64,000 bases of DNA from an uncultured Candidatus Saccharibacteria bacterium (GCA_964555185.1 CAZKRD010000001.1:124265-188264), one strand, 5' to 3'; counted from the stretch's first letter, positions 1,828-62,157 are shown. Program-made: numbers and translations. The notes: a model not told the origin generated them from the letters alone.

Positions 1828-2172
1828 TCCTTTTCATTATTATCATTAGATTCAACAGATTCAACCTATCTATAAACTCATTTTCACTCTACAAGATAAA
1901 CATTCAAAAGTCAAGTAATGTCATTGCGAGGAGCGACCAGAGGGAGCGACGCGGCAATCTCCAAACAGCAAGAATGAACCATTTTACTGGACAGAGATTG
2001 TCGCCAATACCGGGTGACCACCCAAAGGGTGGCTTCGGTCATCTCTCGTCAAGCTCGGGTTTCCCTCGCAATCACAGAAAATAAAAAGCCAAAATGCCTT
2101 TATCTGATTTGTCAAAAAAGAATATTCTCTATCGCTTCCGGAAATTCATTTCCGTTCTTTTGTTAGTAGGTG
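1782..2172. repeat. Copy 2 of the tandem-duplicated cassette; contains the intact start of the giant gene
   Basis: See 270..662. Confidence 0.85.
1917..2074. repeat. Family-A IR miniature element (second copy)
   Basis: Identical to 408..565. Confidence 0.6.
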
Positions 2173-13374: not shown

Positions 13375-14621
13375 TATTTATTTTAAAATTTCAAATGAGA
13401 AGAGAAAATTCAGGAAAAAATTTTGCTTATGGAATGGAACGGAAAAGAGCAGATGTTTCTAAAAGGCAGTTAGCAAAAAATGAAGCCAAAACACTGCTAG
13501 AATCAGATGAACCAACCGAGTCTATTGTTTATATTTTAAAACAGGAATTAGAACGGCTTGAAAAGAAAGGGCTTCTTGGCACAGACCAAGCTTTAACCCC
13601 TTTAGCAGAGGGAGCAATGCGTGCAGCGGCTTCCCGCGGGGATTGGAATAATGTTTTGAGAAGCGATCTTCTAAAAAGATACGACTATGGTACTCAAAAG
13701 GCAAGTACGGGCGCTGATGTTAGGATGTTTAAGAAACTTTTTGGCGATAGTTCAGAAGCAATTCAGGTTTTAAACAGTTTAGCTGAATCCTCTAAAGCCG
13801 AGTACACCCATTTGGCTTATGCCACTTATTATGATGGAGAAGAGAGTAGGTTAAAATACAGCATAGATAGAAAAGAATACTTAGATTCAATGGAAGAGCA
13901 AAGGGTGAAAATGAATAAAAAGAGAAGAAAAGCTGGACAAGAGGAGATTTCAAGGGATGATTTTTATAATCTAGTTATTGATAATTTAGGAGAAGTGGAC
14001 GCGGAGATTAGACAGAAGAATGAGTTAAAGAAGGAAAATGTTGCTGAAGGAATAGCTGAAGTGATTAAGCTTTATAATAAAGATCGGGGTGATGCGATTA
14101 TGGCTGAATTGGCAAAAAAGGATCCTAAAGCTAAATGGAAGGTTAACCCGGGCGTATTTGCCGCGGAAATTGGCGGCGGTTATTGGGAGTTGAATCCCGA
14201 AACAGGCAAAGAGGAATATGTTGCTAAATACTATGGCGAAACAGCATCATCTCGGGCTTATATTGAGAGCGCGACCACGGCGGACGCGGAAAGAATAGAC
14301 AGTTGGGCTTCTCCGCGCATGCGCAGAGCTATTCTTGATAATAGGAAAATGGTGAATAACATCCTTGAAAGAATAGAAAACGAGAAAAGAGAGGAAGCTA
14401 AGAAAGCAAGGATTTCGGGAAATGCAGAAGAAGTAAGGAGACTTGAAGACTATGCTAACAAAAAGAGGGTAATTTGGAATCGTATATATGAAAAACTTGA
14501 GATATCACAAAGCAAGGACGGTAATGCTGGTACTGGTTTCATCGATAGAGAGGGAAAAGCTCAAGTTGTGGCTGAAGATGATGAGGCCGCAGTAGCCAAA
14601 GAAGAAACAGGGGGGACTTAA
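13362..14621 (+). CDS. Stand-alone paralog of the C-terminal module of the VirB6-like protein
   Basis: MERKRADVSKRQLAKNE...STGADVRMFKKLFGDSSEAIQVLNSLAESSKAEYTHLAYATYYD...KWKVNPGVFAAEIGGGY...DSWASPRMRRAIL...EETGGT versus MEKKRADSAKRKLAKDE...TGADVRMFKQLFGDDPEAIQVLNSLAESSKSKYTHLAYATYFD...DSWAPPRMRKAIL...EETEGT. Nucleotide identity is high in blocks. The true start may be ATG 13434. Confidence 0.7.
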   Translation: MGRVVFILKFQMRRENSGKNFAYGMERKRADVSKRQLAKNEAKTLLESDEPTESIVYILKQELERLEKKGLLGTDQALTPLAEGAMRAAASRGDWNNVLRSDLLKRYDYGTQKASTGADVRMFKKLFGDSSEAIQVLNSLAESSKAEYTHLAYATYYDGEESRLKYSIDRKEYLDSMEEQRVKMNKKRRKAGQEEISRDDFYNLVIDNLGEVDAEIRQKNELKKENVAEGIAEVIKLYNKDRGDAIMAELAKKDPKAKWKVNPGVFAAEIGGGYWELNPETGKEEYVAKYYGETASSRAYIESATTADAERIDSWASPRMRRAILDNRKMVNNILERIENEKREEAKKARISGNAEEVRRLEDYANKKRVIWNRIYEKLEISQSKDGNAGTGFIDREGKAQVVAEDDEAAVAKEETGGT

Positions 14622-14632
14622 AAAATAATGGT

Positions 14633-15772
14633 ATGACTAATTTTTCTAAGAAAATTCTTCCAATTGCCGCTTCTCAAGAAACAGCGTCAAAGTTAGCTCA
14701 GATTGCTGAACGTTTTTCATTATCCCGCGAACAGCGGAATCTTCAGGCGCGGATTTTGAGTAAGCTTTTGACCGCGGAAATCGGCCCGGAAGACTTGGCG
14801 CGCGTTTTAAGGATTAATCTTAATTTGAATGAGCAAAAAGCCAATACTCTTGCGCGCGCCATCCAGAAAGAGGTATTGGCGGGTTTAGATACCGGCGGCG
14901 GTTCTAAAAGGAGAAAGAAAATAAGAAAAAATAGGCAAAGACCGAAAAAGACAAGACCGGAGAAAAAGGGAAAATCAGAGCAGGCAAAGTTTAGCGCTCA
15001 AGAATTAAGAGCATGGTTTGATCGTCTTGTCAGGGATTTCAATTTGAATTTATCAGAGCTTCAGACCTCTCGTTTAGAGAGCGCGGCTTTGACCTATCTC
15101 AAAGATGTCCGTGATGAGATCGAAACCGAAAATGTTTTGTACCGCTCCCAGAACGAAGGAGGAGTTGGTTTGGCTGTTCCAGAGGCCGTAAAGATTACCC
15201 GCCGTCTAATAGAAGACTTCCCGGAAGAGGAGAAAAACGGGATCCGCAAGTCTTTCCATCCCAGAAGATCCGCAAGAGAAAGGGAAAAGCCGCCAGAGAA
15301 GCCCTTCCCGCCAGAAAGTCTCCGAGCAACTCAACCAATCGAGAGACCAAAAGCTATCGCGCCAGAGGGAGCCCGCCTAATCTCTGATGTGATTGGAGCG
15401 CCGCCTCGCCTTTCCCAGAGACCAAAACAGAAAAAGAGGGGCTTGTCTATTTCTGATTTAAGCCAGATTGCTCAACTAAAAGATTTGAGCATTGAGGCCT
15501 TTAAGAGAAAGCGGGCCGCGCAAGTCGTCAGCGAATTTCAGAATAAAATTAACGCCCTGGTGGGCAAAGATGAAGCGAAAAGAATGCAGAGCATTGAGGC
15601 TTGGCGCCAGTGCGAACCTTATCAGCTATACATTATGATCGGCGAAGAAAGCATTGGCCAGGGCAAGACCGTAGCCGAAGTAGCCCGCGAGAGAGCAAGA
15701 CAGAACAAGCCTTATTTAACCGAGGAGGAATTCAATGCGGTCGCGGATGTGAGCCGCGAGTTTCAATACTAA
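14633..15772 (+). CDS. Hypothetical soluble basic protein (379 aa)
   Basis: ORF tightly packed after 13362..14621 (11-bp gap). Lys/Arg-rich tract GGGSKRRKKIRKNRQRPKKTRPEKKGK. No TM. Confidence 0.55.
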   Translation: MTNFSKKILPIAASQETASKLAQIAERFSLSREQRNLQARILSKLLTAEIGPEDLARVLRINLNLNEQKANTLARAIQKEVLAGLDTGGGSKRRKKIRKNRQRPKKTRPEKKGKSEQAKFSAQELRAWFDRLVRDFNLNLSELQTSRLESAALTYLKDVRDEIETENVLYRSQNEGGVGLAVPEAVKITRRLIEDFPEEEKNGIRKSFHPRRSAREREKPPEKPFPPESLRATQPIERPKAIAPEGARLISDVIGAPPRLSQRPKQKKRGLSISDLSQIAQLKDLSIEAFKRKRAAQVVSEFQNKINALVGKDEAKRMQSIEAWRQCEPYQLYIMIGEESIGQGKTVAEVARERARQNKPYLTEEEFNAVADVSREFQY

Positions 15773-15788
15773 TTTTGATACTAAAATT

Positions 15789-16205
15789 ATGCAAGCAGTC
15801 GTACCCCAATTTATTGAAGTTGAAGACAGAATCATTGGCCCTTTAACCTTAAAACAGTTTCTTTATTTTTTAGCAGCCGGCGGCATAGAGCTTGTCTATT
15901 GGTTTTTCTTTGATTTTTCTTTATTTATTTTAATCAGTATTCCGACCGTAGCGATCGCCTTCGCCTTCGCCTTCTTTAAGATTAACGATCGGCCTTTTAT
16001 CTATTTTGTTTTAGCGGTCATTGGGTTTTATCTAAAACCAGTGGTCAGGGTTTGGCATCGCCGCGGCAGTAAATTAACGGCGCGGGATATTATTGCTGTT
16101 TCTTTCCTTGAAGAAACTGAAGGTGTGGGGCACAAGGATTTGCTTAAAGCGCATATGAAGCGGGGACGGCTAGCCCACATCGAGAAAGCGCTTGAAACAG
16201 CGTAG
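15789..16205 (+). CDS. Small two-TM membrane protein, VirB3/PrgI-like by position and topology
   Basis: 138 aa with a hydrophobic hairpin (FLYFLAAGGIELVYWFFF...ILISIPTVAIAFAFAFF...FVLAVIGFYL). It lies directly upstream of the VirB4 N-domain ORF, as virB3 does in T4SS loci. Confidence 0.4.
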   Translation: MQAVVPQFIEVEDRIIGPLTLKQFLYFLAAGGIELVYWFFFDFSLFILISIPTVAIAFAFAFFKINDRPFIYFVLAVIGFYLKPVVRVWHRRGSKLTARDIIAVSFLEETEGVGHKDLLKAHMKRGRLAHIEKALETA

Positions 16206-16334
16206 AGTTTAGTTTAAAATTCAAAATGCAAAGTTAAAAGTTGCAATTAGAAGTTTAAAGTTATGGAAAATAAGGAGTTGAAAGGACAGCTAGTTAGGTT
16301 CCTATATCTATCGCTACTTTAATAAATTTGATAA

Positions 16335-16395
16335 AGAAAAGAAAACTTTAAATTTTGGATTCAATTTTGAACTTTGAACTTTGAACTTTTAACTA
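16335..16395. repeat. Family-B 8-bp periodic repeat upstream of the VirB4 N-domain ORF
   Basis: 'ttcaattttgaactttgaactttgaacttttaact'. Confidence 0.65.
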
Positions 16396-16402
16396 TATAC
16401 CT

Positions 16403-17155
16403 ATGCCCCCCAAACAAAAACCTAAAAATAAAACTAATCCCAAGGAGAATAAGAAGTCCAAAGGCCGTTTTTTCAGTCTCCATTCCAAAAAGCTGACCGC
16501 GGGCAAGCCCAAGAAAACCACCCAGCAATTTTTGGATATTGTTGGGATCAGGGATAATACAGTGGTGCTTCGCGACGGCACTCTGCGCGCGATTATCATG
16601 GTTTCCAGTATGAATTTTTCTTTGAAGGGCCAAGAAGAGCAGAACTCCATTATCTATAGTTATCAAAGTCTTTTGAATGCTCTGAATTTTCCTATCCAGT
16701 TTGTGATTCAGTCTCGAGAATTGAATATTGAGTCCTATCTTAAAAATTTGGAAGAGCTAGAAGCAAAGCAAACGAATGAGCTTTTAAGGATTCAGACCAT
16801 AGAATACCGCGAGTACGTGAGCGAACTTGTTGAGTGGGGCCAGATTATGCGCAAACGTTTTTACATAGTCGTATCCTATGCTTTGGTGGAAGCCAAGGAA
16901 GAAAGTATGCTGTCCAAATTCAGAGCGATTGTGCGGCCGGCGGAGATTGTGCGGCAAAAGGAAAAAGACTTCTTAAGATACAAAAGTCTTTTGGATCAGA
17001 GAGTGGCGCGTATGGACGGTCTCCTAAATTCAATCGGCTTAAAGAGCGTACGTTTGAATACACAGGAATTAATTGAGCTGTTCTATAACGTCTACAATCC
17101 GTTTGTTTCTAGAACTCAGCCCTTAGCTGATGTTAAGAAACTTAATATTGTCTAG
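16403..17155 (+). CDS. VirB4/TraE-family N-terminal domain encoded as a separate ORF
   Basis: QFLDIVGIRDNTVVLRDGTLRAIIMVSSMNFSLKGQEEQNSIIYSYQSLLNALNFPIQFVIQS...RFYIVVSY matches the pattern of the extreme N-terminus of Gram-positive-type VirB4 proteins. Same frame as 17177..19117, separated by TAG (17153-5) and TAA (17159-61). Confidence 0.5.
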   Translation: MPPKQKPKNKTNPKENKKSKGRFFSLHSKKLTAGKPKKTTQQFLDIVGIRDNTVVLRDGTLRAIIMVSSMNFSLKGQEEQNSIIYSYQSLLNALNFPIQFVIQSRELNIESYLKNLEELEAKQTNELLRIQTIEYREYVSELVEWGQIMRKRFYIVVSYALVEAKEESMLSKFRAIVRPAEIVRQKEKDFLRYKSLLDQRVARMDGLLNSIGLKSVRLNTQELIELFYNVYNPFVSRTQPLADVKKLNIV

Positions 17156-17176
17156 CCCTAAATCAGAAATAAATCA

Positions 17177-19117
17177 ATGCCTAATCCAAAAAACAACAAA
17201 GCCAAAAAAGAGTCAAGGGGTAAGCCCATTTTAGAAATTGTTGGTCCTGGCGCGTCCTCCAGGCTGGGTTTAACCCAAGAAGAGAAGGTAAGAGTTCTTG
17301 AGGCGCAGAAAGATTATTTAGAAGGCATCGCCACAATCAGAGACTTAATCGCGCCAGCGGCGATGAAGATTGACTCCCGTTATGTGCAGATTGGAGACTA
17401 TTTTGCGCGCACTCTTTTTATCTTCACTTATCCGCGTTATCTGCATACCGATTGGTTCTCGCCCGTGATTAATATGGACGCGGTTTTTGATGTAGCGATG
17501 TTTGTTTATCCTCAAAGTTCAGCTTCAGTTTTAAAGCGCCTGACTAAAAGCGCGGCCCAAATTTCTTCCTCTATTTCAATGGAGCGGGAAAAAGGCAAGG
17601 TCAGAAGCCCGATGCTTGAGACCGCGCATAGGGATGTTGAGTCATTACGAGATGCCTTGCAGCAGGGTACAGAGCGATTATTTAAATTCGCTCTCTATAT
17701 AACCATTTATGGGACTTCCTTAAAACATCTCGACAAAAATACAAAAAGGGTGGAAGTCTTGCTGGGCACTCGCTTGATCTATGCTAAGCATGCTATTTTC
17801 CAAAGCGAGCAGGGATTTAACTCTACTCTGCCGCTTGCCAATGACGAGCTTTTTATTGTTAACAATTTGAATACTTCGCCTTTGTCCACCAGCTTCCCTT
17901 TTGTTTCTTATGAGCTTTCTTCTAATGAAGGAATTCTTTACGGTGTTAATCGCCATAATAACAGCTTGATTCTTTTTGACCGTTTTTCTTTGGAAAATGC
18001 TAATAGCGTGGTTTTTGGCAAATCAGGCGCGGGTAAGAGCTATGCGATTAAGCTTGAAATTTTGCGGAGCTTAATGTTGGGAACCGATGTTTTGGTGATT
18101 GATCCGGAGAATGAGTATAAGCACCTGGCCAGCGCGGTAGGGGGGGCCTTTTTGCAGATTTCTCTGTCCTCACCCCATCGGATTAATCCTTTTGATTTGA
18201 CCTTGGTCTCGCGCGCATCCAAGCCCGAGGACATTTTAAGAGAGGCAGTGATAAGTCTAAAGGGGCTTTTGAGATTAATTTTAAGCGGAGTTAGTCCAGA
18301 GGAAGACGCACTTTTAGATGAAGCGGTGATGCAGACCTATGCTTCCAAAGGGATTACCCCTGAAACTTCCTGGGAGGGCCGGGCAATGCCCACGATGGAT
18401 GACTTTGAACGGATCCTGCAGAGTATGGAAGGGACCGACAGTATGGTCCAGATTTTAAGCAAGTTTACCAAAGGAACCTTTGCCGGCATCTTTAATCAGC
18501 CGACTAATCTTACTATGGATAGGCAGTTCGTGGTTTTCAGTATTCGTGATTTGGAGGATGAGCTCCGGCCGATCGGGATGTATGTGGTTTTAAATTACAT
18601 TTGGAATATCGTTCGCGCGGAATTAAAGAGAAGGGTTTTGGTGGTGGACGAGGCCTGGTGGATGATGGAGCACGAGGACTCGGCCCAGTTCCTGTTTTCA
18701 ATCGCGAAAAGGGCGCGCAAGTATTATTTAGGATTGACTACGATCAGCCAGGATGTTAATGACTTCTTGGCTTCTCGCCACGGCCAGGCGATCGTGACCA
18801 ACTCTTCAATTCAGCTCCTTCTGCGCCAGTCTCCGGCCTCGATTGATCTAGTCGCTTCCGTTTTTCACCTCACCCAGGAGGAAAAGTATCTGCTTTTGGC
18901 TTCGGACGTGGGAGAGGGAATTTTCTTCGCCGGCAATAAGCACGTGGCGATCAAGATTGTCGCTTCTTATTCTGAAGACCAGATCATTACCTCTGATCCC
19001 AAGCAGCTGATTGAGATCGCGAAAGCGAAAGAGGAGTTTGCGAGAGTGAACAATCAAGAAAACGAGGCAGCGGAAGAGAGAGACGATTCAGAGCAAGGGG
19101 CAAGTAACACTATTTGA
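17177..19117 (+). CDS. virB4: VirB4/TraC/CagE-family T4SS ATPase (646 aa)
   Basis: LIAPAAMKIDSRYVQIGDYFARTLFIFTYPRY... then YGVNRHNNSLILFDRFSLENANSVVFGKSGAGKSYAIK (Walker A), VLVIDPENEYKHLASAVGG, and VLVVDEAWWMM (Walker B, DEAW). Confidence 0.85.
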   Translation: MPNPKNNKAKKESRGKPILEIVGPGASSRLGLTQEEKVRVLEAQKDYLEGIATIRDLIAPAAMKIDSRYVQIGDYFARTLFIFTYPRYLHTDWFSPVINMDAVFDVAMFVYPQSSASVLKRLTKSAAQISSSISMEREKGKVRSPMLETAHRDVESLRDALQQGTERLFKFALYITIYGTSLKHLDKNTKRVEVLLGTRLIYAKHAIFQSEQGFNSTLPLANDELFIVNNLNTSPLSTSFPFVSYELSSNEGILYGVNRHNNSLILFDRFSLENANSVVFGKSGAGKSYAIKLEILRSLMLGTDVLVIDPENEYKHLASAVGGAFLQISLSSPHRINPFDLTLVSRASKPEDILREAVISLKGLLRLILSGVSPEEDALLDEAVMQTYASKGITPETSWEGRAMPTMDDFERILQSMEGTDSMVQILSKFTKGTFAGIFNQPTNLTMDRQFVVFSIRDLEDELRPIGMYVVLNYIWNIVRAELKRRVLVVDEAWWMMEHEDSAQFLFSIAKRARKYYLGLTTISQDVNDFLASRHGQAIVTNSSIQLLLRQSPASIDLVASVFHLTQEEKYLLLASDVGEGIFFAGNKHVAIKIVASYSEDQIITSDPKQLIEIAKAKEEFARVNNQENEAAEERDDSEQGASNTI

Positions 19118-19794: not shown

Positions 19795-19862
19795 ATTTAA
19801 AGTTCAAAGTTCAAAGTGACACTTCAAGTGTCATCCTGAAGGCGCTTTAGCGCCGAAGGATC
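19795..19862. terminator. Paired hairpins after the lipoprotein gene (family-B variant)
   Basis: 'aagttcaaagttcaaagtgacacttcaagtgtcat' + 'ggcgctttagcgcc'. Confidence 0.4.
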
Positions 19863-25641: not shown

Positions 25642-25764
25642 GTCATTGCGAGGGAGCCCGCCCTTCAGGGCGAGGCGACCGAAGCAATCTCGTGAAACTA
25701 GATATTACTGCTTGACTTGACGAGATTGCTTCGTCATTCGCTTCACTCATTCCTCGCAATGACA
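25642..25764. repeat. Family-A IR miniature element without cargo
   Basis: 'gtcattgcgagggagcccgcccttcagggcgaggcgaccgaagcaatctc' ... inverted 'gagattgcttcgtcattcgcttcactcattcctcgcaatgacat'. Confidence 0.6.
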
Positions 25765-31852: not shown

Positions 31853-32011
31853 CTATTAGCGAGGAGCGACCAGAGGGAGCGACAAAGCAATCTCATAAAC
31901 AGCAAAAATAAGCCATTTTTATTTCTTGGAGATTGCCTGCCTGCCGCCTGCCTGCCGGTAGGCAGGGTGGGCAGGCTTCGGTCGAGCAGTAGCCCTCTCT
32001 CGCAATGACAT
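31853..32011. repeat. Family-A IR miniature element without cargo (degenerate left end)
   Basis: 'tattagcgaggagcgaccagagggagcgacaaagcaatctc ... gagattgcctgcctgccgcctgcctgccggtaggcagggtgggcaggcttcggtcgagcagtagccctctctcgcaatgacat'. Confidence 0.55.
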
Positions 32012-32474: not shown

Positions 32475-32690
32475 TGAACATTCCGCGAGATTGTTCACCA
32501 GTGGATTTATTGTAATATCACTGGTTTTTTTATTCGAGCAAAAAGCATTTTAAAAGTATAATAACTGACGAAGGCGGTGGGTGCAGGATTCCCACCCTAC
32601 AGGTGGTCATCCAGAAAGGGTGAGAATCTGTTGTGTGTTGCGGCGCCTTTTGGTTAAAATTCGAACCTATTTTCAGGAAAATTCCGATAC

Positions 32691-32731
32691 CGATTTTTAA
32701 TCTACCCGCCCGCCTTCGGCGGGCGGGTAGA
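32691..32731. terminator. Strong GC hairpin (13-bp perfect stem), terminator-like
   Basis: 'ctacccgcccgcc ttc ggcgggcgggtag' lies just downstream (minus-strand sense) of serS and inside the island's left end. Confidence 0.4.
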
Positions 32732-32881
32732 AAATCCGTTTCAAAAATTCGCTTCGCGGATTTCCGTCTCGGCAAAAAATTTTGTTAAGATAAAATTGTT
32801 TAAAAGCAATTTTGGAAATTTCAAAAATCTTTTGATATTTCTTTCCAAATTTCATTTTTCGTAAACAAAAATATCACCACT

Positions 32882-34177
32882 TCAAAAATTGACTTTTGGG
32901 GGATTGCTCAAAATGATTTTGGGTAAACTCGGCATATATTTTCGTAAAACCTCTGGAACTTTTACGCTTCCATCCTCCTGTTGGTTATTTTCAATTATTG
33001 AAATTAAAAGTCTAGGTACGGCAAAAGCTGTTCCGTTTACAGTATGAACAAAGTTTAATTTACCCAATCTGTTTCTACAGCGAATATTTAATCTTCTTGC
33101 TTGAAAATCAGTACAATTTGAAGTTGAATGGGTCTCACGATATCTATTTTGAGATGGTATCCATGTTTCGATATCATATTGGCTAGCCGTAGGCAATGCC
33201 ATATCTCCACTACATATTTTAATTACACGATAAGGAAGTTTTAATGCTTCCATTAACTTTTCTTCTATTTCTAGAAATAACCAGTGCTCTTTTTTTGAAT
33301 CCTCCGGTTTGCAAAAGCTAAACATCTCAATTTTATCAAATTGGTGAACCCTAAAAATCCCTCTTGTATCTTTTCCATAAGAGCCACTTTCTCTGCGAAA
33401 ACAAGTGGAAAAACCTAAATATCTCTTAGGAAGTTCTTCATTATCAAAAACCTCGTTGGAGTGCATTGCACCTATAGAATGTTCTGCTGTGGCCACTAAA
33501 TATAAATCATCTTGAGGTAGATAATATGCCTCCTCTTTACCAGAATGTTCTAAATATCCCATTCCTCTTTCCATTTCTGATTTTAACATTGCCGGTGGAA
33601 TAATTGGAATAAATTTAAATTCTTTAATTAAAATATCATAAGCCAATTTTATTAAAGCAAATTCCAATAAAACTGCTTCCTTCTTCAAAAAACTAAATCT
33701 TGTCCCAGAAATCTTTGCTGCTCTTTTAACATCAATTATGTCTAATTTTTCACCAATCTCTAAATGGTCTTTTGGTTTGAAATCAAATTTTGGCCTCTCT
33801 CCCACCTCTCTTAAAACTACATTCTCTCTCTCATTTTTTCCTATTGGAACATCCTCTTGAGGTAAATTTGGGACTTGAAGTATTAAGTTATTAATTTTTT
33901 TTTCAAGAATTTTTAGAGTTTTATTTAATCTATCACTGTTTTTATCTAATTCTCTCATTTCTAAGATTATTTTTTGTTTTTCTTTCTCATCTTTTATTTC
34001 GGAAATTTTTTTTGAAGCTTTATTTTTTTGAGCCCGCGTGTCTTCCAAGGTTGGAATTATTTTCCGTCTTTTTTTATCAAATTCTAAAAGTTGATCAATA
34101 TCAACCATAACCTGCTTCTGTTGACAAGCACTTTTTACTTTATCGAGATTCTGACAAATAAATCTAATATCTAACAT
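32882..34177 (-). CDS. serS: Seryl-tRNA synthetase (bacterial type, class II)
   Basis: N-terminal coiled coil. Class II motifs FRRESGSYGKDTRGIFRVHQFDKIE, TSNCTDFQARRL, GTAFAVPRLLISIIENNQ. 431 aa. Confidence 0.9.
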   Translation of the reverse strand: MLDIRFICQNLDKVKSACQQKQVMVDIDQLLEFDKKRRKIIPTLEDTRAQKNKASKKISEIKDEKEKQKIILEMRELDKNSDRLNKTLKILEKKINNLILQVPNLPQEDVPIGKNERENVVLREVGERPKFDFKPKDHLEIGEKLDIIDVKRAAKISGTRFSFLKKEAVLLEFALIKLAYDILIKEFKFIPIIPPAMLKSEMERGMGYLEHSGKEEAYYLPQDDLYLVATAEHSIGAMHSNEVFDNEELPKRYLGFSTCFRRESGSYGKDTRGIFRVHQFDKIEMFSFCKPEDSKKEHWLFLEIEEKLMEALKLPYRVIKICSGDMALPTASQYDIETWIPSQNRYRETHSTSNCTDFQARRLNIRCRNRLGKLNFVHTVNGTAFAVPRLLISIIENNQQEDGSVKVPEVLRKYMPSLPKIILSNPPKVNF

Positions 34178-34243
34178 AAATTAATAATAACAAAAATAAT
34201 GAAATAAGAGTAGTCCCCTTAATTATTTGTCATTGTTGTATTT

Positions 34244-35248
34244 TTAGGAATAAAATTTTTCTTTTATATACTTAGGTAGTATTCCAAATCTCCAAAAATC
34301 ATAATATTTTTGCTTATGACAAAAACCGGTATAATTTCTGTTTAATTTTTCTAAAACTATTTCTTTCATTAATTTCTTTCTTTCTTTTAGGGTTTTATTC
34401 CTAAAATCCCTCACGTATTCTAATCTAATAGCACAATTAGACACAAGTCCTTCTGGGTTCACACGAATTTTTGTACATTTTTCTCGGTCACAACGATAAT
34501 TTGCAGAATAATTTGGGTTAACTCCGTATATTCCTTTTAATCCAGAAATTCGAAAATATAAGGATTTAGGGACATTTCCTTTATTCTCAAGGGGAATTAA
34601 ATCTCCGTATTTTTTAAGACAGTTTAATATTTCATATATCGAAACAAAATTTTTCTCAAAAATTGTAATATCTTCATCATATATCTGACCACAAGGAACA
34701 AGTTCTAAAAATCTAACTGTTAATTTTCCCTGAAATTCTTCAGTAAATTTAACAAAATCATCAATCGTACTAAAATTATTTTTAGTTATAACACAATTAA
34801 TTTTAGTATTACTGTATAATTCTGTGGCTTTTTTTATAGAGTCTATAACATAGTTGAATCCGTCAACGCCACAAATATTTTTATATTGATTTCTATCTAA
34901 AATATCTAAACTCAAATTCACCCTTGTAATGCCAGCTTCTTTTAATTTATCAGCCATTTTATAATATAAGATTCCATTTGTCGTTAGGTGCTGTTGTCTA
35001 ACGCCTAAAGCTTTCACATTTTTAACAAGGTTTATAAATCCTTCTCTAACCGTCGGTTCCCCACCAGTCCATATTACTCTTTTAATTTCTGTCGAAGCCC
35101 CCGCTTCTACAATTTTTAATAGATCTTTATCAGATAATATATTGGGGTTAGGATTCCTTTTGGGGTTACAATAATTACAATTTAGATTGCAAGCGCTAGT
35201 CGCAGAAATCCTTAACGTATAGTTATTCTGTAGTTTAGTTTTATTCAC
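34244..35248 (-). CDS. Radical SAM enzyme, MoaA-like (GTP 3',8-cyclase family fold)
   Basis: LRISATSACNLNCNYC (CxxxCxxC), WTGGEPTVR, HLTTNGILY, RVNLSLDILD, FLELVPCG. The collinear MoaA signature. Confidence 0.8.
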   Translation of the reverse strand: MNKTKLQNNYTLRISATSACNLNCNYCNPKRNPNPNILSDKDLLKIVEAGASTEIKRVIWTGGEPTVREGFINLVKNVKALGVRQQHLTTNGILYYKMADKLKEAGITRVNLSLDILDRNQYKNICGVDGFNYVIDSIKKATELYSNTKINCVITKNNFSTIDDFVKFTEEFQGKLTVRFLELVPCGQIYDEDITIFEKNFVSIYEILNCLKKYGDLIPLENKGNVPKSLYFRISGLKGIYGVNPNYSANYRCDREKCTKIRVNPEGLVSNCAIRLEYVRDFRNKTLKERKKLMKEIVLEKLNRNYTGFCHKQKYYDFWRFGILPKYIKEKFYS

Positions 35249-35264
35249 AAATAGTCTTAAGTGA

Positions 35265-36470
35265 TCAAAATTTATTATTAAGAATCATATTAGTGAATTT
35301 TGTATAATTTGAATCCGGCACCATCCAAAAAAGATTCTCAAATTCCTTTAAAATAATTAATCGAATGGTTTCTTTGTTTTCTTCGTTCATTTCCTTACAA
35401 GTATTAATGCTCACGATTTCCGGCATACTGATTGGATTACCCAGTCGGCTTAATATACTAACTTCTACTGATAATTTATTATTAAATCTCTTAGCTATCT
35501 TTTTAGCTAAATAAAAGGCTAACAAATTATATAATTTCCCAGTATTATAGACTGGATTTTTTCCATAAATCACCTCAAAACTTGTTGGCCTGTAAAAACT
35601 AATTAGCCCCGACACTCTATTTCCTCGGCCGACAGAACCTTTATCATGCTCTGCTGCTGTTCCTGTTAATGTTAAATAAACTTTTTTTTCTTTTTTATTG
35701 TCTGCAGCGTTAATAACTAGTTCAACTTGCTGCTTAATTTTCTTTCTAACTAAAGCTAATAGTTTTTCTTTAATTTTTTCTTTCAGTAAAAAATATTCAT
35801 TTATATTCTTTATTTTCTCCCCTAAAAAAGCGATGCTGATAATAATCTGAATTTTCCTTTCGCTATCTTTTTTTACTACCATCACCTTTGTATCTTTACC
35901 GATTGGAAATTCTTTTATTAATTTTTGGGAAAGATTTTTCTCAATATCTAATGTTAAATTTTCTACTAATGTATATGGATAAAAACCAATTCCAATAGCA
36001 GTGTCTTCGGAGATTGGTAACTCTCTGCTTTCAAAAAACTTCTTATTTCTTATAGAATATATTCCAATATTAGATTTTATCTTAAAGACCCTTAAAATTT
36101 TATTGTTAAAAATACTAGTAAGTAATTTTTTAGTTGAGCTAACAGCTATTTTATTGATTTTTTTACATTCTTCTTGTGAAATACAAGAGGCTTTTCCGGA
36201 TATTGTAATCTCTCCTGGCTTTATAATTTGACCTTTGCCAAAATTAATTTTGATTTCTCCACCATTTATTTCAACTTGGTCAACATTGAAACGATATATA
36301 GCTCTATATTTATTCTTGTAATAATTACAAATATTTCGGCAGGTGAATTCGGCAATTTGGTCCGCCAAAGAATCAGGGTGACCTATTCCTTTCTTTTCTA
36401 CAATCTCGATTTTCTTTTGAGATAAAGATGAACTTACGGTATTTATAATAATATCAAATGGATACTCCAT
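35265..36470 (-). CDS. S-adenosylmethionine synthetase, archaeal type (MAT)
   Basis: VEKKGIGHPDSLADQIAE...RFNVDQVEINGG resembles the archaeal MAT N-terminus (ERKG-GHPDS-CD-IAE...NTDQVEL-GG). ~400 aa. Confidence 0.75.
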   Translation of the reverse strand: MEYPFDIIINTVSSSLSQKKIEIVEKKGIGHPDSLADQIAEFTCRNICNYYKNKYRAIYRFNVDQVEINGGEIKINFGKGQIIKPGEITISGKASCISQEECKKINKIAVSSTKKLLTSIFNNKILRVFKIKSNIGIYSIRNKKFFESRELPISEDTAIGIGFYPYTLVENLTLDIEKNLSQKLIKEFPIGKDTKVMVVKKDSERKIQIIISIAFLGEKIKNINEYFLLKEKIKEKLLALVRKKIKQQVELVINAADNKKEKKVYLTLTGTAAEHDKGSVGRGNRVSGLISFYRPTSFEVIYGKNPVYNTGKLYNLLAFYLAKKIAKRFNNKLSVEVSILSRLGNPISMPEIVSINTCKEMNEENKETIRLIILKEFENLFWMVPDSNYTKFTNMILNNKF

Positions 36471-36475
36471 AAAAT

Positions 36476-37351
36476 TTAACCTAAAAACTCATTATAAATT
36501 CTCTCGAAGTCCTGAATTAAATAGGCTGATTTTTTTAATCTTGATATACTATGAGCATCACTACCAATTGAAATTTTATTTCCGCCCATTTTTATATACT
36601 CATTAATTATACCCACAGAAGGATAAGTTTCACCCGTATCTTTAATCCCAGATAGATTAATCTCTAAACCAATGTTATTTTTTATTAACTCTCTCAAAAT
36701 AGGTCGTATATATATTATAGCTTTATCAAAATGATAATTCTTAAATTTTTTCTTTAAAAAGTCTAGGTGAGCAATATAATTAAACATCCCCGATTTTATT
36801 GCGGATAAAATATTTTCAAAATATGCCGAATATAATTTTTGCTCGCCATATTTATTAATGAATGGCTGTAATTGATTTATAAAACCTACGTGTATATATC
36901 TGTTTGATTCTGGTAATGCCGAACCGCAAACATAGTGACAACTTCCTAAAATAATATCTATTTTATATTTTGTAATACACTCTTTGATTTCATCTTCGTA
37001 TTCTGTAAAATAATCTACTTCTAATCCCTTTAATATTCTTACTCGAAATTTTTCTTGCAATACCTCTATATGTTTAAAATAAGTTTTTAAATCTATTGTT
37101 TTCCTACCATCTTTAGGGATTAAACTTTCTTCGGGAAATAAGGTATCATGATCTTTCTCACTAATTGGTTTAGGATACTTTATTAATGGCCAAATAAAGT
37201 GTTCAGTAATTGCTATTTCCTTAAATCCAATATTCTCAGCCGCAGCTATTATTGATTCCAAATCATCTTTTGTATGATCCAGAAATCCAGAATGTATATG
37301 ATAATCCTTCTTCATGGATTTTATTATAAATAATAATCTCCCAAAAGTCAA
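36476..37351 (-). CDS. PHP-family metal-dependent phosphoesterase (histidinol-phosphatase-like)
   Basis: DYHIHSGF (start), ITEHF, ...SDAHS. The likely true start is ATG at MKKDYHIHS (~37315). Confidence 0.7.
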   Translation of the reverse strand: MTFGRLLFIIKSMKKDYHIHSGFLDHTKDDLESIIAAAENIGFKEIAITEHFIWPLIKYPKPISEKDHDTLFPEESLIPKDGRKTIDLKTYFKHIEVLQEKFRVRILKGLEVDYFTEYEDEIKECITKYKIDIILGSCHYVCGSALPESNRYIHVGFINQLQPFINKYGEQKLYSAYFENILSAIKSGMFNYIAHLDFLKKKFKNYHFDKAIIYIRPILRELIKNNIGLEINLSGIKDTGETYPSVGIINEYIKMGGNKISIGSDAHSISRLKKSAYLIQDFERIYNEFLG

Positions 37352-37384
37352 TTTTTGAAGTGGTGATATTTTTGTTTACGAAAA

Positions 37385-38650
37385 ATGAAATTTGGAAAGA
37401 AATATCAAAAGTTTTTTCTCTATGCGAGAAAATCAACGGACACGGAAGAAAGGCAAATTCGAAGTCTTGACGACCAAATAGCTGAATTGAAAGAACTTGC
37501 GAAAAAGGAAAATATAGAAATCGTGAAAATTTTCATTGAAAAACAAACTGCCAAAGAGCCGGGCAGACCAATTTTTAACGAAATGTTATCTCGTATAGAG
37601 AAGAATGAAGCTGAAGGAATTTTAACGTGGCATCCAGATCGCCTTGCCAGAAATTCTGTTGACGGCGGAAAAATAATTTGGCTTTTGGATATTGAAAAAC
37701 TAAAAGAGCTAAAATTCCCGACTTTTTGGTTTGAAAATACGCCGCCGGGAAAATTTATGCTTCAGATTGCCTTCGGCCAGTCAAAATACTATATTGATAA
37801 TCTTTCGGAAAATATCAAAAGAGGAATAAGGCAGAAATTAAAAAACGGGCTTTGGCCGCAAATGGCCCCGCTTGGATATTTGAACGACAAAAACACAAAA
37901 TCAATCGTTGTTGATCAAAATAAAACCCGCTTCATCAAAAAATCTTTTGAATTGTATTCAACCGGAAAATTTTCCCTGCGGCGCTTGTGCGAGACAATCA
38001 ATAATCTGGGATTGATCGGAAGAAAAAATAAAATGTTGAGTATCTCAAATTACCAATATTTTCTCAAAAACCCGTTTTATTGCGGACTAATCAGATATAA
38101 CGGGGAATTATACGAAGGAAAACACGAACCAATTATTGCAAAGAAACTTTTTGATAAAACGCAGGAAATAATGAAAGGGAAAAGCAAACCGAACAAGAAG
38201 AAGTTAAAGTATTTTGTTTTTCGCGGGTTTATCCGTTGCGGGGAGTGTGGTTGTTTAATTACCGCCGAGAATCAAAAAGGGCATAATTATTACCATTGCA
38301 CCAAACGAAAAACAAAATGCTTTCAAAAATATGTCCGCGAGGAAAATTTAACAAAACAAATAAACGAGCATATTCAAAAAGTTTCTTTGCCTGATGACTG
38401 GGCAAACAATATACTTGCCGAGATAGACAAAGAAAAAGAGCAAGCGAGAGAAGAAACGAAAGTTTTTATTCAAAATCTCCAAACTCAAAAAGTGGAAATT
38501 GAAAGCAAGGCCGAGAACCTGCTTGATTTGTTTATCGGTGGCAAAGGCATTGAGCCAGAAGAATACCAAGCAAAAAAACAAAAACTGCTTAACAAGAAGC
38601 AGGATATTTTAGGAAAAATAAAAATGATTGAAAAAAAAGGCAATACTTAG
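37385..38650 (+). CDS. Large serine recombinase / integrase
   Basis: Resolvase catalytic domain (FFLYARKSTD..QIRSLDDQ...HPDRLARN), recombinase domain, and Zn ribbon (FIRCGECGCLITAENQKGHNYYHCTKRKTKC). 421 aa. Confidence 0.85.
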   Translation: MKFGKKYQKFFLYARKSTDTEERQIRSLDDQIAELKELAKKENIEIVKIFIEKQTAKEPGRPIFNEMLSRIEKNEAEGILTWHPDRLARNSVDGGKIIWLLDIEKLKELKFPTFWFENTPPGKFMLQIAFGQSKYYIDNLSENIKRGIRQKLKNGLWPQMAPLGYLNDKNTKSIVVDQNKTRFIKKSFELYSTGKFSLRRLCETINNLGLIGRKNKMLSISNYQYFLKNPFYCGLIRYNGELYEGKHEPIIAKKLFDKTQEIMKGKSKPNKKKLKYFVFRGFIRCGECGCLITAENQKGHNYYHCTKRKTKCFQKYVREENLTKQINEHIQKVSLPDDWANNILAEIDKEKEQAREETKVFIQNLQTQKVEIESKAENLLDLFIGGKGIEPEEYQAKKQKLLNKKQDILGKIKMIEKKGNT

Positions 38651-38848
38651 CTTGAACAGATGAAAGACATGATTTTAGCCAGTAGCCAAGCCAAAATTCT
38701 TTTGTCGCAGAGCGACAATCAAAAAATCCGAGCATTCCTAAAAAATATCGGCTCGAACTTCATTTTGAAAGATAAAAAATTCCAATTTGCGCTTAAAATT
38801 GGCTGGCGAGCGCTCGCAGAAGGCGAGCTAACAAAAACATTTCCCGAT

Positions 38849-38939
38849 TGGCGGTGGGTGCAGGATTCGAACCTGCGGTCCCCAAAAAGGAGACTCTGGT
38901 TTTCAAAACCAGTGCATTCGACCACTCTGCCAACCCACC
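38849..38939 (-). tRNA. tRNA-Ser (anticodon TGA), with encoded CCA
   Basis: RC reads GGTGGGTTGGCAGAGTGGTCGAATGCACTGGTTTTGAAAACCAGAGTCTCCTTTTTGGGGACCGCAGGTTCGAATCCTGCACCCACCGCCA. Long variable arm, anticodon loop TTTGAAA. Confidence 0.85.
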
Positions 38940-53165: not shown

Positions 53166-53193
53166 GTCATTGCGAGCGAAGCGAAGCAATCTC
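53166..53193. repeat. Family-A solo repeat arm
   Basis: 'gtcattgcgagcgaagcgaagcaatctc'. Confidence 0.6.
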
Positions 53194-54337: not shown

Positions 54338-54392
54338 GTCATTGCGAGGAGCCCGCACCTTTTAGAAAAGGTGCGGGGGACGCGGCAATCTC
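54338..54392. repeat. Family-A solo repeat arm with internal hairpin
   Basis: 'gtcattgcgaggagcccgcaccttttagaaaaggtgcgggggacgcggcaatctc'. Confidence 0.6.
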
Positions 54393-55184: not shown

Positions 55185-55220
55185 GTCATTGCGAGGGAGC
55201 GGAGCGACCGAAGCAATCTC
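55185..55220. repeat. Family-A solo repeat arm
   Basis: 'gtcattgcgagggagcggagcgaccgaagcaatctc'. Confidence 0.6.
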
Positions 55221-59549: not shown

Positions 59550-60086
59550 TTGATGTCTTCAAAAATCCTTTGGCTAGTTTTAATCGTTGCTGTTATTATT
59601 CTCGGAATCACGATCTACTTTGCCCACTTTTTTGAGATAGAAATAGAAAATACAGAGTTGCCAAAAAGAGGGGATCTTGATTTGTCGAGTGACACTTTGC
59701 CTGTACCGGACAATATCATTCCTCCTTCCCCTGATTATAATCCAGGGGGAGATGATAGTCCGGATGATCCTGGAGATGATCCTGGAGTAGAAAATCTTAA
59801 GATGAAGATAGTAAGTTATCGCGGCTTTATTACTAAGATAGGATCTTCTTCAATTGAGTTTGAACCAAGAGTAGAGGGAGGGTCGGAAAAGCTGGTTACT
59901 GCTTTTGTTGATGCTAATACTGAAATCACACAAGTGTTTCTTTCCGAAGAGACAGTAGAGGAATCAATTGAACTTTCCGATTTAAGGGTTGGCGATGAAG
60001 TAAGAGTGAATGGGTTAGCCCAAAATTATTTTGAGCCGATCCCGCATACTATTCAAATAGAAAGATTTTATTTAAGAAAAAAATGA
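59550..60086 (+). CDS. Membrane-anchored protein with Pro/Asp-rich linker
   Basis: TM (ILWLVLIVAVIILGITIYFAHFF). PPSPDYNPGGDDSPDDPGDDPG. Confidence 0.5.
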   Translation: MMSSKILWLVLIVAVIILGITIYFAHFFEIEIENTELPKRGDLDLSSDTLPVPDNIIPPSPDYNPGGDDSPDDPGDDPGVENLKMKIVSYRGFITKIGSSSIEFEPRVEGGSEKLVTAFVDANTEITQVFLSEETVEESIELSDLRVGDEVRVNGLAQNYFEPIPHTIQIERFYLRKK

Positions 60087-61639
60087 AAACAATTTATTCA
60101 ACAATCAAACATTGCCTTTTCCTTGCTGCCTTTTTGCTTGTTTGTCTTTATCCTATGGAGATAGAGGCGGCGCTAAGAACTGCTGGTGATTTTGAGTGTG
60201 ATGATTCCGGAGGAAGTTGGGCTTGTTTTAGTCGGCCGGGAGATACAATAGAGTTTCAGGTAAGGGCGCGTGATCCGGATAGCCAAGTCTATTTTTGGCT
60301 TTATTGGAATGATGTTCTACCAGACCCAGGAGAAAGGCAGCCTGCTGCCCCAGGATATGTAAATTCAGACACCTGGTTGCCGGTTTCCCATACATATTCT
60401 AATTCAGGTATCTATAATGTCTATGCTGAAGCTTGTGATGATCAGGATGTATGCCCTGGAGATCCATCAAACATTATTGATATATTTATTTCCAGGATCA
60501 CTAATTTTACAAAGAGTGTTGATAAAGCAACAGCGAGTGTGGGCGAACAGATTAATTATACTTTTAGTTTTGATCTTGTGGACGCACCAGCTAGGCGCCT
60601 AGGCATGACTGATCCAATTCCAGCTAACTCTAGTTATGTTAATGGTTCTGCTTCATATAATTGTCCTTCTGGTGCGGGAGCAGGAGCAAGAGTGGGGTCG
60701 GAAATAGTGTGGGATATGGGAGATCAAGCTATAGGCACTTGCGATCTGGGGATGGCGGTTATTGCCCAAGGCGGCGCTATTTTAAATAGCGCCGAAGCCT
60801 TTGCCAGGAACGCGGACCCGGTTCTTTCAAATGTGGTAGCCACCTCTGTTACCGAGGCTTGGCTTCAGACTGAATGGGGAGACGTACATAGCGACGTGGT
60901 GATTGCTAACAGTGATCAGGCAAGCGGAGAGGATAGTGCTACATATGTGGTGAGCGCGGATGGGAGTATTAGTGATTTTTACAGTGCACAAGGTTCTTCT
61001 TGGGTTTTTGAAGATTATGATAATTTACAAACCGTTTTTACGGCGATTGATATCCAAGGTTTGATTGACGGGGATTATGGTGAGCGGCAGAATACTAATC
61101 CCGCGGATTGGATGGGCAGTGATGATCCATTAATCACTGTGCCTTTATGGCGAGGTGATGATCCGACTAAAAATGTCTGGTATCGAGGTGTTAATTTGAA
61201 CATTGCGAATAATAATCAGGATTTGTATTTAGAGCGCGGCGGTACGATTGTCGTGGAGGGAGATTTGAGAATCAAGGGCAATGTCTATTACGACCCGAAT
61301 TTCAACTGCGCTGCTTTGCCCGGTGGGGTTGATTGCCGGGATGCCTTGCCCACGGTCGGCTTTGTAGTGATGGGCGATGTGATTATTGATCCTGATGTAA
61401 CTTATATTGCCGGCAATTTCTATGTCTTAGGCACGTTTTACACAGGAGATTCAAACAGTGATCAGCTGGTGATCGAGGGTTCGGTTGTTGCTAATGAGTT
61501 TGATCTAGAGAGAGAATATTCGGCTAGCGGAGATCCAGGAGAGATTTTTCGCTATGACGGCCGGGTTTTGGTCAACCCGCCGCCAGGATTTTCAGATCCG
61601 GCTGCTAAACTGCCGGGCGGGAGTCAGATAAGCCCGTGA
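60083..61639 (+). CDS. Secreted protein (518 aa), translationally coupled (ATGA overlap) to the upstream gene
   Basis: Signal peptide (LFLAAFLLVCLYPMEIEA). PKD-like and DUF11-like beta-rich segments. Confidence 0.6.
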   Translation: MKTIYSTIKHCLFLAAFLLVCLYPMEIEAALRTAGDFECDDSGGSWACFSRPGDTIEFQVRARDPDSQVYFWLYWNDVLPDPGERQPAAPGYVNSDTWLPVSHTYSNSGIYNVYAEACDDQDVCPGDPSNIIDIFISRITNFTKSVDKATASVGEQINYTFSFDLVDAPARRLGMTDPIPANSSYVNGSASYNCPSGAGAGARVGSEIVWDMGDQAIGTCDLGMAVIAQGGAILNSAEAFARNADPVLSNVVATSVTEAWLQTEWGDVHSDVVIANSDQASGEDSATYVVSADGSISDFYSAQGSSWVFEDYDNLQTVFTAIDIQGLIDGDYGERQNTNPADWMGSDDPLITVPLWRGDDPTKNVWYRGVNLNIANNNQDLYLERGGTIVVEGDLRIKGNVYYDPNFNCAALPGGVDCRDALPTVGFVVMGDVIIDPDVTYIAGNFYVLGTFYTGDSNSDQLVIEGSVVANEFDLEREYSASGDPGEIFRYDGRVLVNPPPGFSDPAAKLPGGSQISP

Positions 61640-61653
61640 GTGTATTTTTTATT

Positions 61654-62090
61654 GTCATTGCGAGGAAGGATCCTGAGCTTGCCGAAGGAGACTGACGAAG
61701 CAATCTCCAAGGAGCACCTGCCTATGCCATTTACTGAAAGGCAATATTATGTTTATATAATGACCAACAAATGGAACAATGTTTTGTATATTGGTGTCAC
61801 TAATAATTTAGAAAGAAGAGTATATGAGCACAAGAAGTATGTAAGTAAAGGATTTACGAGTAAGTATCACTTACATAAATTAGTCTACTATGAAACTTAC
61901 GGTAATATAGAGGAAGCTATCTTAAGAGAAAAACAGCTTAAAGGAGGCTCCAGGCAGAAGAAAATAGATTTAATTCAGGAAGATAACCCTGATTTTAAAG
62001 ATTTGACAGAAGGTTGGTATGAATAAACCTCCTTGCTTTATGGAGATTGCTTCGTCGTCCCGCCCTTCGGGCGGACTCCTCGCAATGACA
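61654..62090. mobile_element. Family-A inverted-repeat element carrying a GIY-YIG nuclease gene
   Basis: Left arm 'gtcattgcgaggaaggatcctgagcttgccgaaggagactgacgaagcaatctcc', inverted right arm 'ggagattgcttcgtcgtcccgcccttcgggcggactcctcgcaatgacat'. The same termini occur without cargo elsewhere in the window. Confidence 0.5.
61724..62026 (+). CDS. GIY-YIG domain nuclease (small, COG2827-like)
   Basis: YYVYIMTNKWNNVLYIGVTNNLERRVYEHK...LVYYE...REKQLKGGSRQKKIDLI. Classic GIY-YIG motifs. Confidence 0.8.
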   Translation: MPFTERQYYVYIMTNKWNNVLYIGVTNNLERRVYEHKKYVSKGFTSKYHLHKLVYYETYGNIEEAILREKQLKGGSRQKKIDLIQEDNPDFKDLTEGWYE

Positions 62091-62157
62091 TTCGGGTTTC
62101 GGTCGCCTTTTCAGGCGATTTTTTTAATGTTACAATAAAGGTAATAATTATTTCAAA

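Follow-up and report, generated by a model that had tools for sequence, protein, structure and literature searches.

Proteins of the Ssn family consist of one GIY-YIG domain and measure about 94 aa (Chenal et al., Nat Commun 2025; PMC11893778). The family marker used in that study is CDD cd10448 (PMC11893778). SsnA of Neisseria meningitidis, a 94-aa protein whose gene is flanked by NTS repeats, is a site-specific nuclease with specificity for single-stranded DNA (ssDNA) (PMC11893778). An Ssn protein binds its hairpin repeat, termed NTS in Neisseria and SRM (Ssn-related motif) in general, as ssDNA only and on one strand only, and the cut falls a few nt upstream; SsnA does not act on double-stranded DNA (dsDNA) or bind RNA, and its target is the repeat hairpin of the element itself (PMC11893778). 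Within the repeat, GTC is critical for cutting and C for binding, and mutants of SsnA have been described at residues Y6, Y17 and E64 (PMC11893778). The ssn genes are typically flanked by repeats on both sides and accompanied by hundreds of further intergenic copies; 2% of NTS copies lie inside genes, associated repeats were reported for 71% of ssn genes, and the authors remarked on the insertion sequence (IS)-like architecture of Ssn units (PMC11893778). In this study we analysed a window of 64,000 nt (64 kb) from an uncultured Candidatus Saccharibacteria bacterium (GCA_964555185.1, CAZKRD010000001.1:124265-188264), in which a GIY-YIG gene at 61724-62026 is bracketed by inverted repeat arms that recur at other intergenic sites.

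We hold it to be probable that this locus is an Ssn/SRM module, that is, a GIY-YIG nuclease of the Ssn family together with its cognate Ssn-related motif arms. We favor this reading because of the homology to SsnA, the shared frame of the motif, the association of gene and repeat, the match between protein subtype and repeat class, the dynamics of the units, and their intergenic location. The architecture is one already described in 2025 as the Ssn/SRM system (PMC11893778). Literature searches with the repeat sequence itself returned unrelated primer matches only, and a search for later papers on Ssn found none in the library searched.

The ssn gene and its repeat arms

The gene, which we call ssn, occupies 61724-62026 on the + strand (stop codon included) and encodes a 100-aa single-domain GIY-YIG nuclease (Pfam PF01541, E 1.9e-14, residues 7-80). 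T5orf172 was the sole other Pfam match, over the same stretch, and no DNA-binding domain beyond the 100-aa core was found in the Pfam search. NCBIfam gave no informative match, the top model being TIGR01453 'group I intron endonuclease' at 23.7 bits against a cut-off of 56, and a sequence comparison with the PDB gave only a weak match to the UPF0213 structure 1ZG2 (E 9e-4), which would fit a different subfamily. Read from the sequence, an AAGGAG ribosome-binding site (61709-61714, +) stands 9 nt before the ATG. A longer ORF of 128 aa with a GTG start (61640-62026) crosses the left arm, so that its first 28 residues are translated repeat; the identical protein is annotated as 100 aa in public assemblies, and the true gene is the 100-aa ORF with the ATG start. 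Upstream of this ATG the unit holds no convincing promoter, and ssn is probably transcribed by read-through from the upstream operon. It is the sole ORF within the gene-carrying unit, which encodes no recombinase.

Homology was examined in two N. gonorrhoeae chromosomes by tblastn and pairwise alignment. Each chromosome gave one match to the window protein (tblastn E 3e-18), in an ORF of 94 aa that has canonical NTS copies on its flanks; identity was 45% over 88 aa (pairwise E 5e-28), a value that passes the criterion of E < 1e-10 used in the Ssn paper. From its length and its NTS flanks we infer that the gonococcal ORF is the SsnA orthologue. Residues Y11, Y22 and E69 of the window protein align with Y6, Y17 and E64 of the gonococcal protein. 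On these alignments, the window protein can be assigned to the Ssn family.

The repeat family had first been proposed from a reading of the window (hereafter the original prediction), as termini that flank the GIY-YIG gene and recur elsewhere. The family is real and is shared with these flanks. A search of the window for GTCATTGCGAGG with at most one mismatch gave 12 matches, against a mean of 0.11 (and a maximum of 1) in dinucleotide-preserving shuffles. Anchored extraction yielded 13 arms at nine sites, all nine intergenic when arm positions were compared with the ORF table. The arms follow the plan GTC-ATTGC-GAGG-[2 to 56 variable nt]-(G)AC-GAA-GCAAT-CTC, with the 5' GTC present in 11 of the 13. 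Five sites are inverted pairs of arms, one of which encloses the GIY-YIG gene while four are gene-less, and three others are solo arms, all on the + strand. The sites had been located correctly in the original prediction, with positions off by 1-3 nt.

In the gene-carrying unit, the left arm (61654-61707, +) reads GTC-ATTGC-GAGG-[28 nt]-GACGAA-GCAAT-CTC and starts 14 nt past the stop codon of the ORF at 60083-61639; the right arm (62043-62089, -) contains the nested GC hairpin CCGCCC GAA GGGCGG. The first gene-less pair (pair A, 407-562) lies in a divergent intergenic region and consists of a + arm at 407-448, a 32-nt spacer, and a - arm at 481-562 with the head GTGATTGCGAGG. Its identical counterpart (pair A', 1920-2075) lies 18 nt upstream of the start of a 1976-aa ORF (2094-8024). 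Pair B (25642-25763) begins 2 nt past the radA stop codon and is made of a + arm (25642-25691), a 30-nt spacer and a - arm (25722-25763). Pair C (31853-32009) combines a degenerate + arm (31853-31894, head CTATTAGCGAGG), a 34-nt spacer and a long - arm (31929-32009); the left arm and spacer of this pair are related as siblings to those of pair A (86.9% identity to 413-472).

Pairs A and A' are carried, together with their flanks, by a segmental duplication of about 390 nt (262-649 versus 1770-2162, 90% identity). Because both pairs lie inside this duplication, they represent a single event; consequently, of the 'at least four' cargo-less copies that had been claimed, four pairs are indeed present and three are independent. 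A special constraint on the sequence of the two pairs was considered and rejected, since the identical block runs about 35-40 nt past the pair on both sides, as expected of a recent duplication. The duplicated segment holds the divergent promoter region and the first 23 or so codons of the 1976-aa surface-protein gene. The duplicate copy at 582 appears truncated.

The solo arms at 53166-53193 (+; the minimal form, GTCATTGCGAGCGAAGCGAAGCAATCTC) and at 54338-54392 (+; with an 11-bp nested hairpin, folding z -4.2) lie between pilin-like genes, and the one at 55185-55220 (+) lies between genes of the same pilus operon. As had been proposed, these three single arms occupy spacers of a pilus operon, which is of the type IV kind (homologues of PilB, PilT and PilC together with N_methyl pilins). 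A further solo arm at 19830-19862 (+; GTCATCCTGAAGGCGCTTTAGCGCCGAAGGATC) belongs to a second stem subclass, GTC-ATCCT-GAA..CGA-AGGAT-C, and folds with z -3.2; no cognate ssn gene for it occurs in the window.

The window locus has much in common with the Ssn/SRM system. In both cases a single-domain GIY-YIG protein of about 94-100 aa keeps the Y, Y and E residues, inverted hairpin repeats bracket the gene and occur in many intergenic copies elsewhere, and copies cluster close to pilus and surface-protein genes. The repeats themselves share a 5' GTC, a palindrome that begins with ATT, and a C directly after it: the Neisseria NTS is CGTCATTCCCGCGMAVGCGGGAATCYRG and the minimal window arm is TGTCATTGCGAGCGAAGCGAAGCAATCTC, with the common frame GTC-ATT…AAT-C. 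There are also differences. The stem of the window arms has 5 bp (ATTGC/GCAAT) instead of 8-9 bp, and their conserved GAG...CGAA internal loop takes hairpin inserts of 10-60 nt. The host belongs to the Candidate Phyla Radiation (CPR, or Patescibacteria), a group not mentioned in the published study (PMC11893778). By LigA identity, the closest named relatives of this host are Doudnabacteria (67%).

Arms of one class at ssn loci across phyla

We collected 80 loci encoding close homologues of the window protein (56-69% identity) from contigs representing one genome per species. These loci come from Bacteroidota, Chloroflexota, Patescibacteria, Delta- and Gammaproteobacteria, Atribacterota, Nitrospirae, Ignavibacteriota, Clostridiales, Gastranaerophilales, WOR-3 and others. 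Arms matching GTCATTGCGAG with at most one mismatch were found at 62 of the 80 loci, and the remaining 18 carry sibling arms with the same frame and another complementary stem (TTCT/AGAA, CCCT/AGGG, TCCT/AGGA, TGCT/AGCA, etc.). Arms of the same class are thus present at 80 of 80 loci, and the question of whether GIY-YIG genes with inverted repeats of this kind exist in other phyla, which the original prediction had raised, is answered in the affirmative. A strict scan of the loci for GTC-A-NNNN-GAR…GAA-N'N'N'N'-T-C recovered 243 arms, where the rate in the shuffled window sequence predicts about one. The arrangement of + arm, gene and - arm occurs at 34 of the 62 loci with arms of the GTCATTGCGAG type.

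The positions critical in Neisseria are conserved across the set. When arms were anchored on the palindrome halves, the preceding 3 nt were GTC in 221 of 233 cases, and the next base was C in 86%. Some loci carry two stem types around one gene, and the protein is therefore more likely to read the invariant unpaired bases than the sequence of the stem. The source of the variable inserts is visible in Atribacterota, in which the left arm of one unit (L042) has a 40-nt perfect hairpin exactly where three others (L014, L047 and L060) have GCGAAGC; this insert shows how variable sequence originates within the loop of an arm.

A sister CPR genome (JGI sample 3300033148), whose LigA and RadA are 87% and 89% identical to those of the window, allows protein subtype and repeat class to be compared within one lineage. 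The ssn of this genome is a different one (L085:12493-12786), with a canonical NTS, GTCATTCCCGCGAAAGCGGGAATC, at its flanks; the surrounding region (12378-12810) has GTCATTCCCGCGAAAGCGGGAATC and an arm of the form GTCATCCCC…GGGGATC around this second gene. The encoded protein is 63% identical to the gonococcal protein and 53% identical to that of the window, so two pairs of Ssn and repeat circulate in this CPR lineage. One of the two is nearly the pair known from Neisseria. Such a likeness of Ssn and NTS between a CPR bacterium and a betaproteobacterium is striking.

Gain and loss of units between genomes

One polymorphism concerns the gene-carrying unit itself. In the window, the stop codon of a DUF11-like gene precedes the unit, and the terminator of the host operon follows it, as a terminator-like hairpin with a T run just outside the unit (62101-62120, +); the site lies upstream of ligA. 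In the sister genome (L085, LigA 87%) and in a second relative (L290, 82%) the same two genes lie about 93 nt apart with neither arm nor ssn, and an equivalent terminator follows the upstream gene directly; the window spacer minus the unit measures 82 nt. In a more distant relative (L287, LigA 76%), two tandem - arms stand directly before the same terminator (positions 1-102, the contig starting inside an arm), and in L288 (67%) the site has no arms. The neighbour-joining tree of LigA, (((window, L085), L290), L287), requires at least two gains or losses at this one site.

Two observations concern the sequences at this site. The terminator of L287, GCCTTTTCAGGCG, is closer to that of the window than are those of the nearer relatives, which may reflect either an ancient filled allele common to both or recombination. 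At the empty sites (L085 2655-2685, L290 55-80), the sequence GAAGAATCTC just before the terminator equals the tail of an arm of the TTCT class; this match may be what is left of a lost arm, or a coincidence.

Other sites differ as well between the window and the syntenic contig L166. Relatives were sought with RadA: a metagenome scan gave sequences of at most 54% identity, and a later protein search gave the relative with 89%. Pair B at the 3' end of radA is missing from L166, and so is the second-subclass arm at 19830 together with about 128 nt around it, where L166 has a 17-nt spacer. Conversely, L166 has a pair of arms beside a tRNA (18656-18781) where the window has none, and the - arm of this pair differs by 1 nt from the window arm at 25722-25763. 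Presence or absence between genomes, which the original prediction had put forward as a check, is therefore polymorphic at the site upstream of ligA, at pair B, at the 19830 arm and at the L166 pair. A larger difference was also noted: a segment of about 6.2 kb (32644-38851), encoding SerRS, a radical SAM protein, an archaeal-type SAM synthetase, a PHP protein and a large serine recombinase (37385-38650), has no counterpart in the otherwise syntenic L166 and abuts a tRNA (38852-38939). It may be an integrated or rearranged segment; L166 has a pair of arms at the corresponding junction.

The extent of the unit can be seen in Atribacterota. The units of L014, L042 and L047/L060 share 83-88% nucleotide identity from GTCATTGC, preceded by T, to GCAATGAC, followed by A, and their flanks cannot be aligned; conservation stops precisely where the arms have their outer ends, in unrelated contexts. 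In Ignavibacteriota, one metagenome-assembled genome (MAG) carries two units (L010 and L020) in different contexts. Target-site duplications, for which the original prediction had proposed a check, are lacking: no flanking direct repeat was found at the window units or at the Atribacterota units.

Arms are also found apart from the gene. At least 120 IMG/VR contigs carry exact arms, with no ssn in the 1.03 Mb that was fetched. Portal and major head protein genes identify two of these contigs (L182, 6.6 kb, and L220, 11.6 kb) as genuine phage fragments, which contain five and four exact arms of the window type, respectively. Overall, the spread of arms can be followed by comparison between genomes, and the sequences compared support mobility.

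Proposed mechanism and alternative explanations

Under the Ssn/SRM module, each arm would be a short hairpin with the stem ATTGC/GCAAT, GTC before it and C(TC) after it, and with a GAG...CGAA internal loop that tolerates any nested hairpin. By analogy with SsnA of Neisseria, the window protein would bind the arm only as ssDNA and only on the strand that reads GTCATTGC, and would cut a few nt 5' of GTC; in a bracketed unit, the predicted cuts fall just outside the unit and on opposite strands. Its ssDNA substrates could arise from DNA uptake through the type IV pilus and competence, from replication intermediates, or from conjugation. The window encodes a full type IV pilus system, the one whose operon holds the three solo arms. 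The gene-carrying unit and the gene-less pairs behave like discrete elements prone to gain and loss, with ends at the outer ends of the arms. We note separately that the region at about 14100-19100, upstream of the radA region and syntenic with L166 1-4833, holds PrgI-like, TraC-like and VirB4/TrbE-like genes, as read from Pfam matches in L166, which suggests a type IV secretion or conjugation-like apparatus.

Several results weigh against this explanation. The published SRM pattern, HGTCWYN(0-2)YYVSBRHN(0-5)WNVSBRGN(0-2)RNCYNB, matched none of the window arms and four sequences in the 80 loci, as opposed to seven in a 1.5-kb gonococcal control, and by this formal definition the window arms are not SRMs. 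However, the pattern is a search aid derived from 29 genomes (PMC11893778), and its failure therefore marks a different repeat class and does not exclude the protein from the family. Judged by the published pattern, the arms form a separate class, GTC-A-NNNN-GAR…GAA-N'N'N'N'-T-C. Secondly, short arms on their own fold no better than shuffles, and in a pair the two arms preferentially fold onto one another; such folding would compete with the hairpin of a single arm, which the nuclease presumably requires. Finally, ten Mucilaginibacter loci are syntenic across species even though they carry 2 to 16 arms each, and ssn can accordingly be a stable resident rather than a mobile gene.

The best of the alternatives overlaps with the Ssn/SRM module and differs from it solely in making the nuclease the engine of movement. 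The arms and gene would then be a true autonomous transposon with derivatives resembling miniature inverted-repeat transposable elements (MITEs), with Ssn acting as a transposase that nicks ssDNA just outside each arm, and with host replication or repair aiding the excision and reinsertion of the unit or of a gene-less pair. The arrangement of arms around the gene at 34 of 62 loci, the confinement of Atribacterota identity to the unit, the two contexts within one Ignavibacteriota MAG, and the IS-like architecture remarked on before (PMC11893778) all speak for a transposon. So do the states of the site upstream of ligA (occupied in the window and again in a more distant relative, empty in two closer ones), the absence of pair B from L166 despite a near-identical arm elsewhere in it, and the arms in real phage fragments that have no ssn.

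Other features argue the opposite. Target-site duplications were not seen, and the unit contains no strand-transfer enzyme (DDE, Y1, serine or tyrosine recombinase). Strand joining is not known for enzymes of the GIY-YIG type, which hydrolyse DNA. At 11 loci the layout is reversed (- arm, gene, + arm) and a complete pair stands on either side of the gene, an arrangement that points away from mobility, as does the synteny of ssn in Mucilaginibacter. Repeat-repeat recombination or horizontal transfer would be equally able to produce gain and loss. Among the 80 loci, no clean pair of insertion and deletion alleles was found at 85% identity or above, because each species is represented there by a single genome. 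Internal deletion of the gene-carrying unit is not supported as the origin of the gene-less pairs: the spacer of pair A resembles the start of ssn at p about 0.05 only, the other spacers show no significant similarity, and the spacers are thus not convincingly derived from the gene. Consequently, the MITE-like family with a GIY-YIG autonomous form that had been envisaged holds as far as the linkage of arms and gene (80 of 80) and the polymorphism go, and fails to find support in the derivation by deletion. We regard the nuclease as engine of movement as possible but doubtful.

Inverted termini and unit-sized presence or absence between related genomes are both found here, and it is conceivable, though we lean against it, that the arm-ssn-arm unit and the gene-less pairs make up a new class of mobile element, present in at least 10 phyla, CPR bacteria among them, and in phages, with a hairpin-specific ssDNA GIY-YIG nuclease as its only enzyme; the nuclease would nick immediately outside the inverted arms and leave completion of the move to host replication or repair. 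The 'peel and paste' elements of the IS200/IS605 family resemble the window units in their subterminal ssDNA hairpins, in the lack of target-site duplication, and in cuts just outside the hairpins, which in the window units are predicted. However, the end hairpins of IS200/IS605 lie on the same strand without inverted ends, in contrast to the inverted arms of the window and the opposite-strand cuts predicted for them, and their Y1 transposase is absent from the window unit. The dRS3/NIME repeats and Correia-type MITEs of Neisseria are likewise gene-less units of about 100-160 bp with inverted repeats, located in promoter or intergenic regions and variable between strains. Unlike them, the window units lack target-site duplications, imply no DDE transposase, and let each arm of a pair evolve its own insert.

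A second alternative places the repeats primarily at the RNA level, whether as terminators, as 3' hairpins that stabilise mRNA or as a family of structured RNA, with the GIY-YIG gene incidental. Position and complementarity lend it some support. Five + arms start 2-14 nt past the stop codon of a + strand gene. Where L166 has a plain terminator hairpin, the window has pair B with a T run after it, and the stems of the subclasses differ while complementarity is kept. As to the folding of the arms themselves, about half of them (25642+, 54338+, 62089-, and the long arms 562- and 32009-) have a clear nested GC hairpin, and the 25642 arm folds better than shuffles (z -2.3). The claim that each arm has its own GC hairpin is correct for these and does not extend to the short arms, while the separate hairpin proposed between paired arms is only a loop or spacer of 30-34 nt; the two arms of a pair together form a single long stem (-36.3 kcal/mol, z -7.7).

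A conserved structured RNA is nonetheless disfavored, because covariance models of Rfam at the gathering threshold matched no arm in the window and recovered only three tRNAs there. T runs are absent after the solo arms, and both orientations are found among the arms. Recognition by a protein is indicated instead by the unpaired GTC, which is invariant, and by the link to a single nuclease family at 80 of 80 loci; SsnA does not bind RNA (PMC11893778). We consider a primarily RNA-level function improbable. A secondary role in transcripts is plausible, and the stems of paired arms at gene ends may act as terminators or transcript-end structures as a by-product.

Far less credible is the mobilisation of the arms in trans, as repetitive extragenic palindromic (REP)-like repeats, by the Y1 protein at 8259, of the REP-associated tyrosine transposase (RAYT) or IS200-like kind. 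REP and RAYT are the classical case of hairpin repeats served by an ssDNA enzyme. As in REP sequences and the bacterial interspersed mosaic elements (BIMEs) that they form, the window repeats are short intergenic hairpins, many of them paired in inverted orientation and many located at the 3' ends of genes, with one linked, repeat-flanked gene whose enzyme acts, or in the window would act, on ssDNA hairpins. A Y1_Tnp-like sequence does exist in the window, with the HUH-like motifs IMPNHFHGII and RNYYEHII. Note however that this ORF (8259-8800), the only Y1 gene of the window, is frameshifted at 8541 (the joined frames match PF01797 with E 1.3e-7) and that no arm lies within 6 kb of it. Arms flank ssn and not a Y1 gene at 80 of 80 loci, REP sequences begin with a GTAG-type motif instead of GTC, and the enzyme linked to the window arms is a hydrolytic GIY-YIG protein and not an HUH/Y1 protein with a covalent intermediate. 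Service by a RAYT, one of two modes of mobilisation that the original prediction had offered, is not supported, given the broken, arm-less Y1 gene and the linkage to ssn.

The other mode, homing, in which a free-standing GIY-YIG endonuclease would cleave alleles that lack it and enter them through repair copying, we give next to no credence: homing enzymes such as I-TevI and the T4 Seg proteins share the fold and the association with mobility, and the far sub-threshold top match in NCBIfam bears the name of an intron endonuclease, but homing enzymes cut dsDNA at empty alleles, have a DNA-binding domain of their own and reside in introns or phage genomes, whereas the window protein is a catalytic core only, lacks an intron or intein context, has no homologue in 50,697 GenBank phage records, leaves gene-less pairs and solo arms unexplained under homing, and has a characterised relative that ignores dsDNA and recognises the repeat of its own element and not an empty site (PMC11893778).

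The Ssn/SRM module consequently remains the reading that we prefer, and several aspects of it go beyond the published description. These are a cross-phylum repeat class outside the published pattern, the occurrence of the Ssn system in CPR bacteria, sites whose filled or empty state differs between sister genomes, units that end at the ends of arms, and arms inside phage genomes. Since the published pattern misses a large cross-phylum branch, the association of ssn with repeats is probably higher than the 71% reported. The comparative data also back an idea that the authors of the original study could only raise, namely that units are gained and lost as discrete elements; part of this backing comes from arms that lie within structural modules of phages. 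Arms account for spurious N-terminal extensions such as that of the 128-aa ORF and probably give rise to many small false ORFs in the annotation of such genomes. Finally, each conserved pair of protein and repeat is a candidate site-specific ssDNA nuclease with a new specificity.

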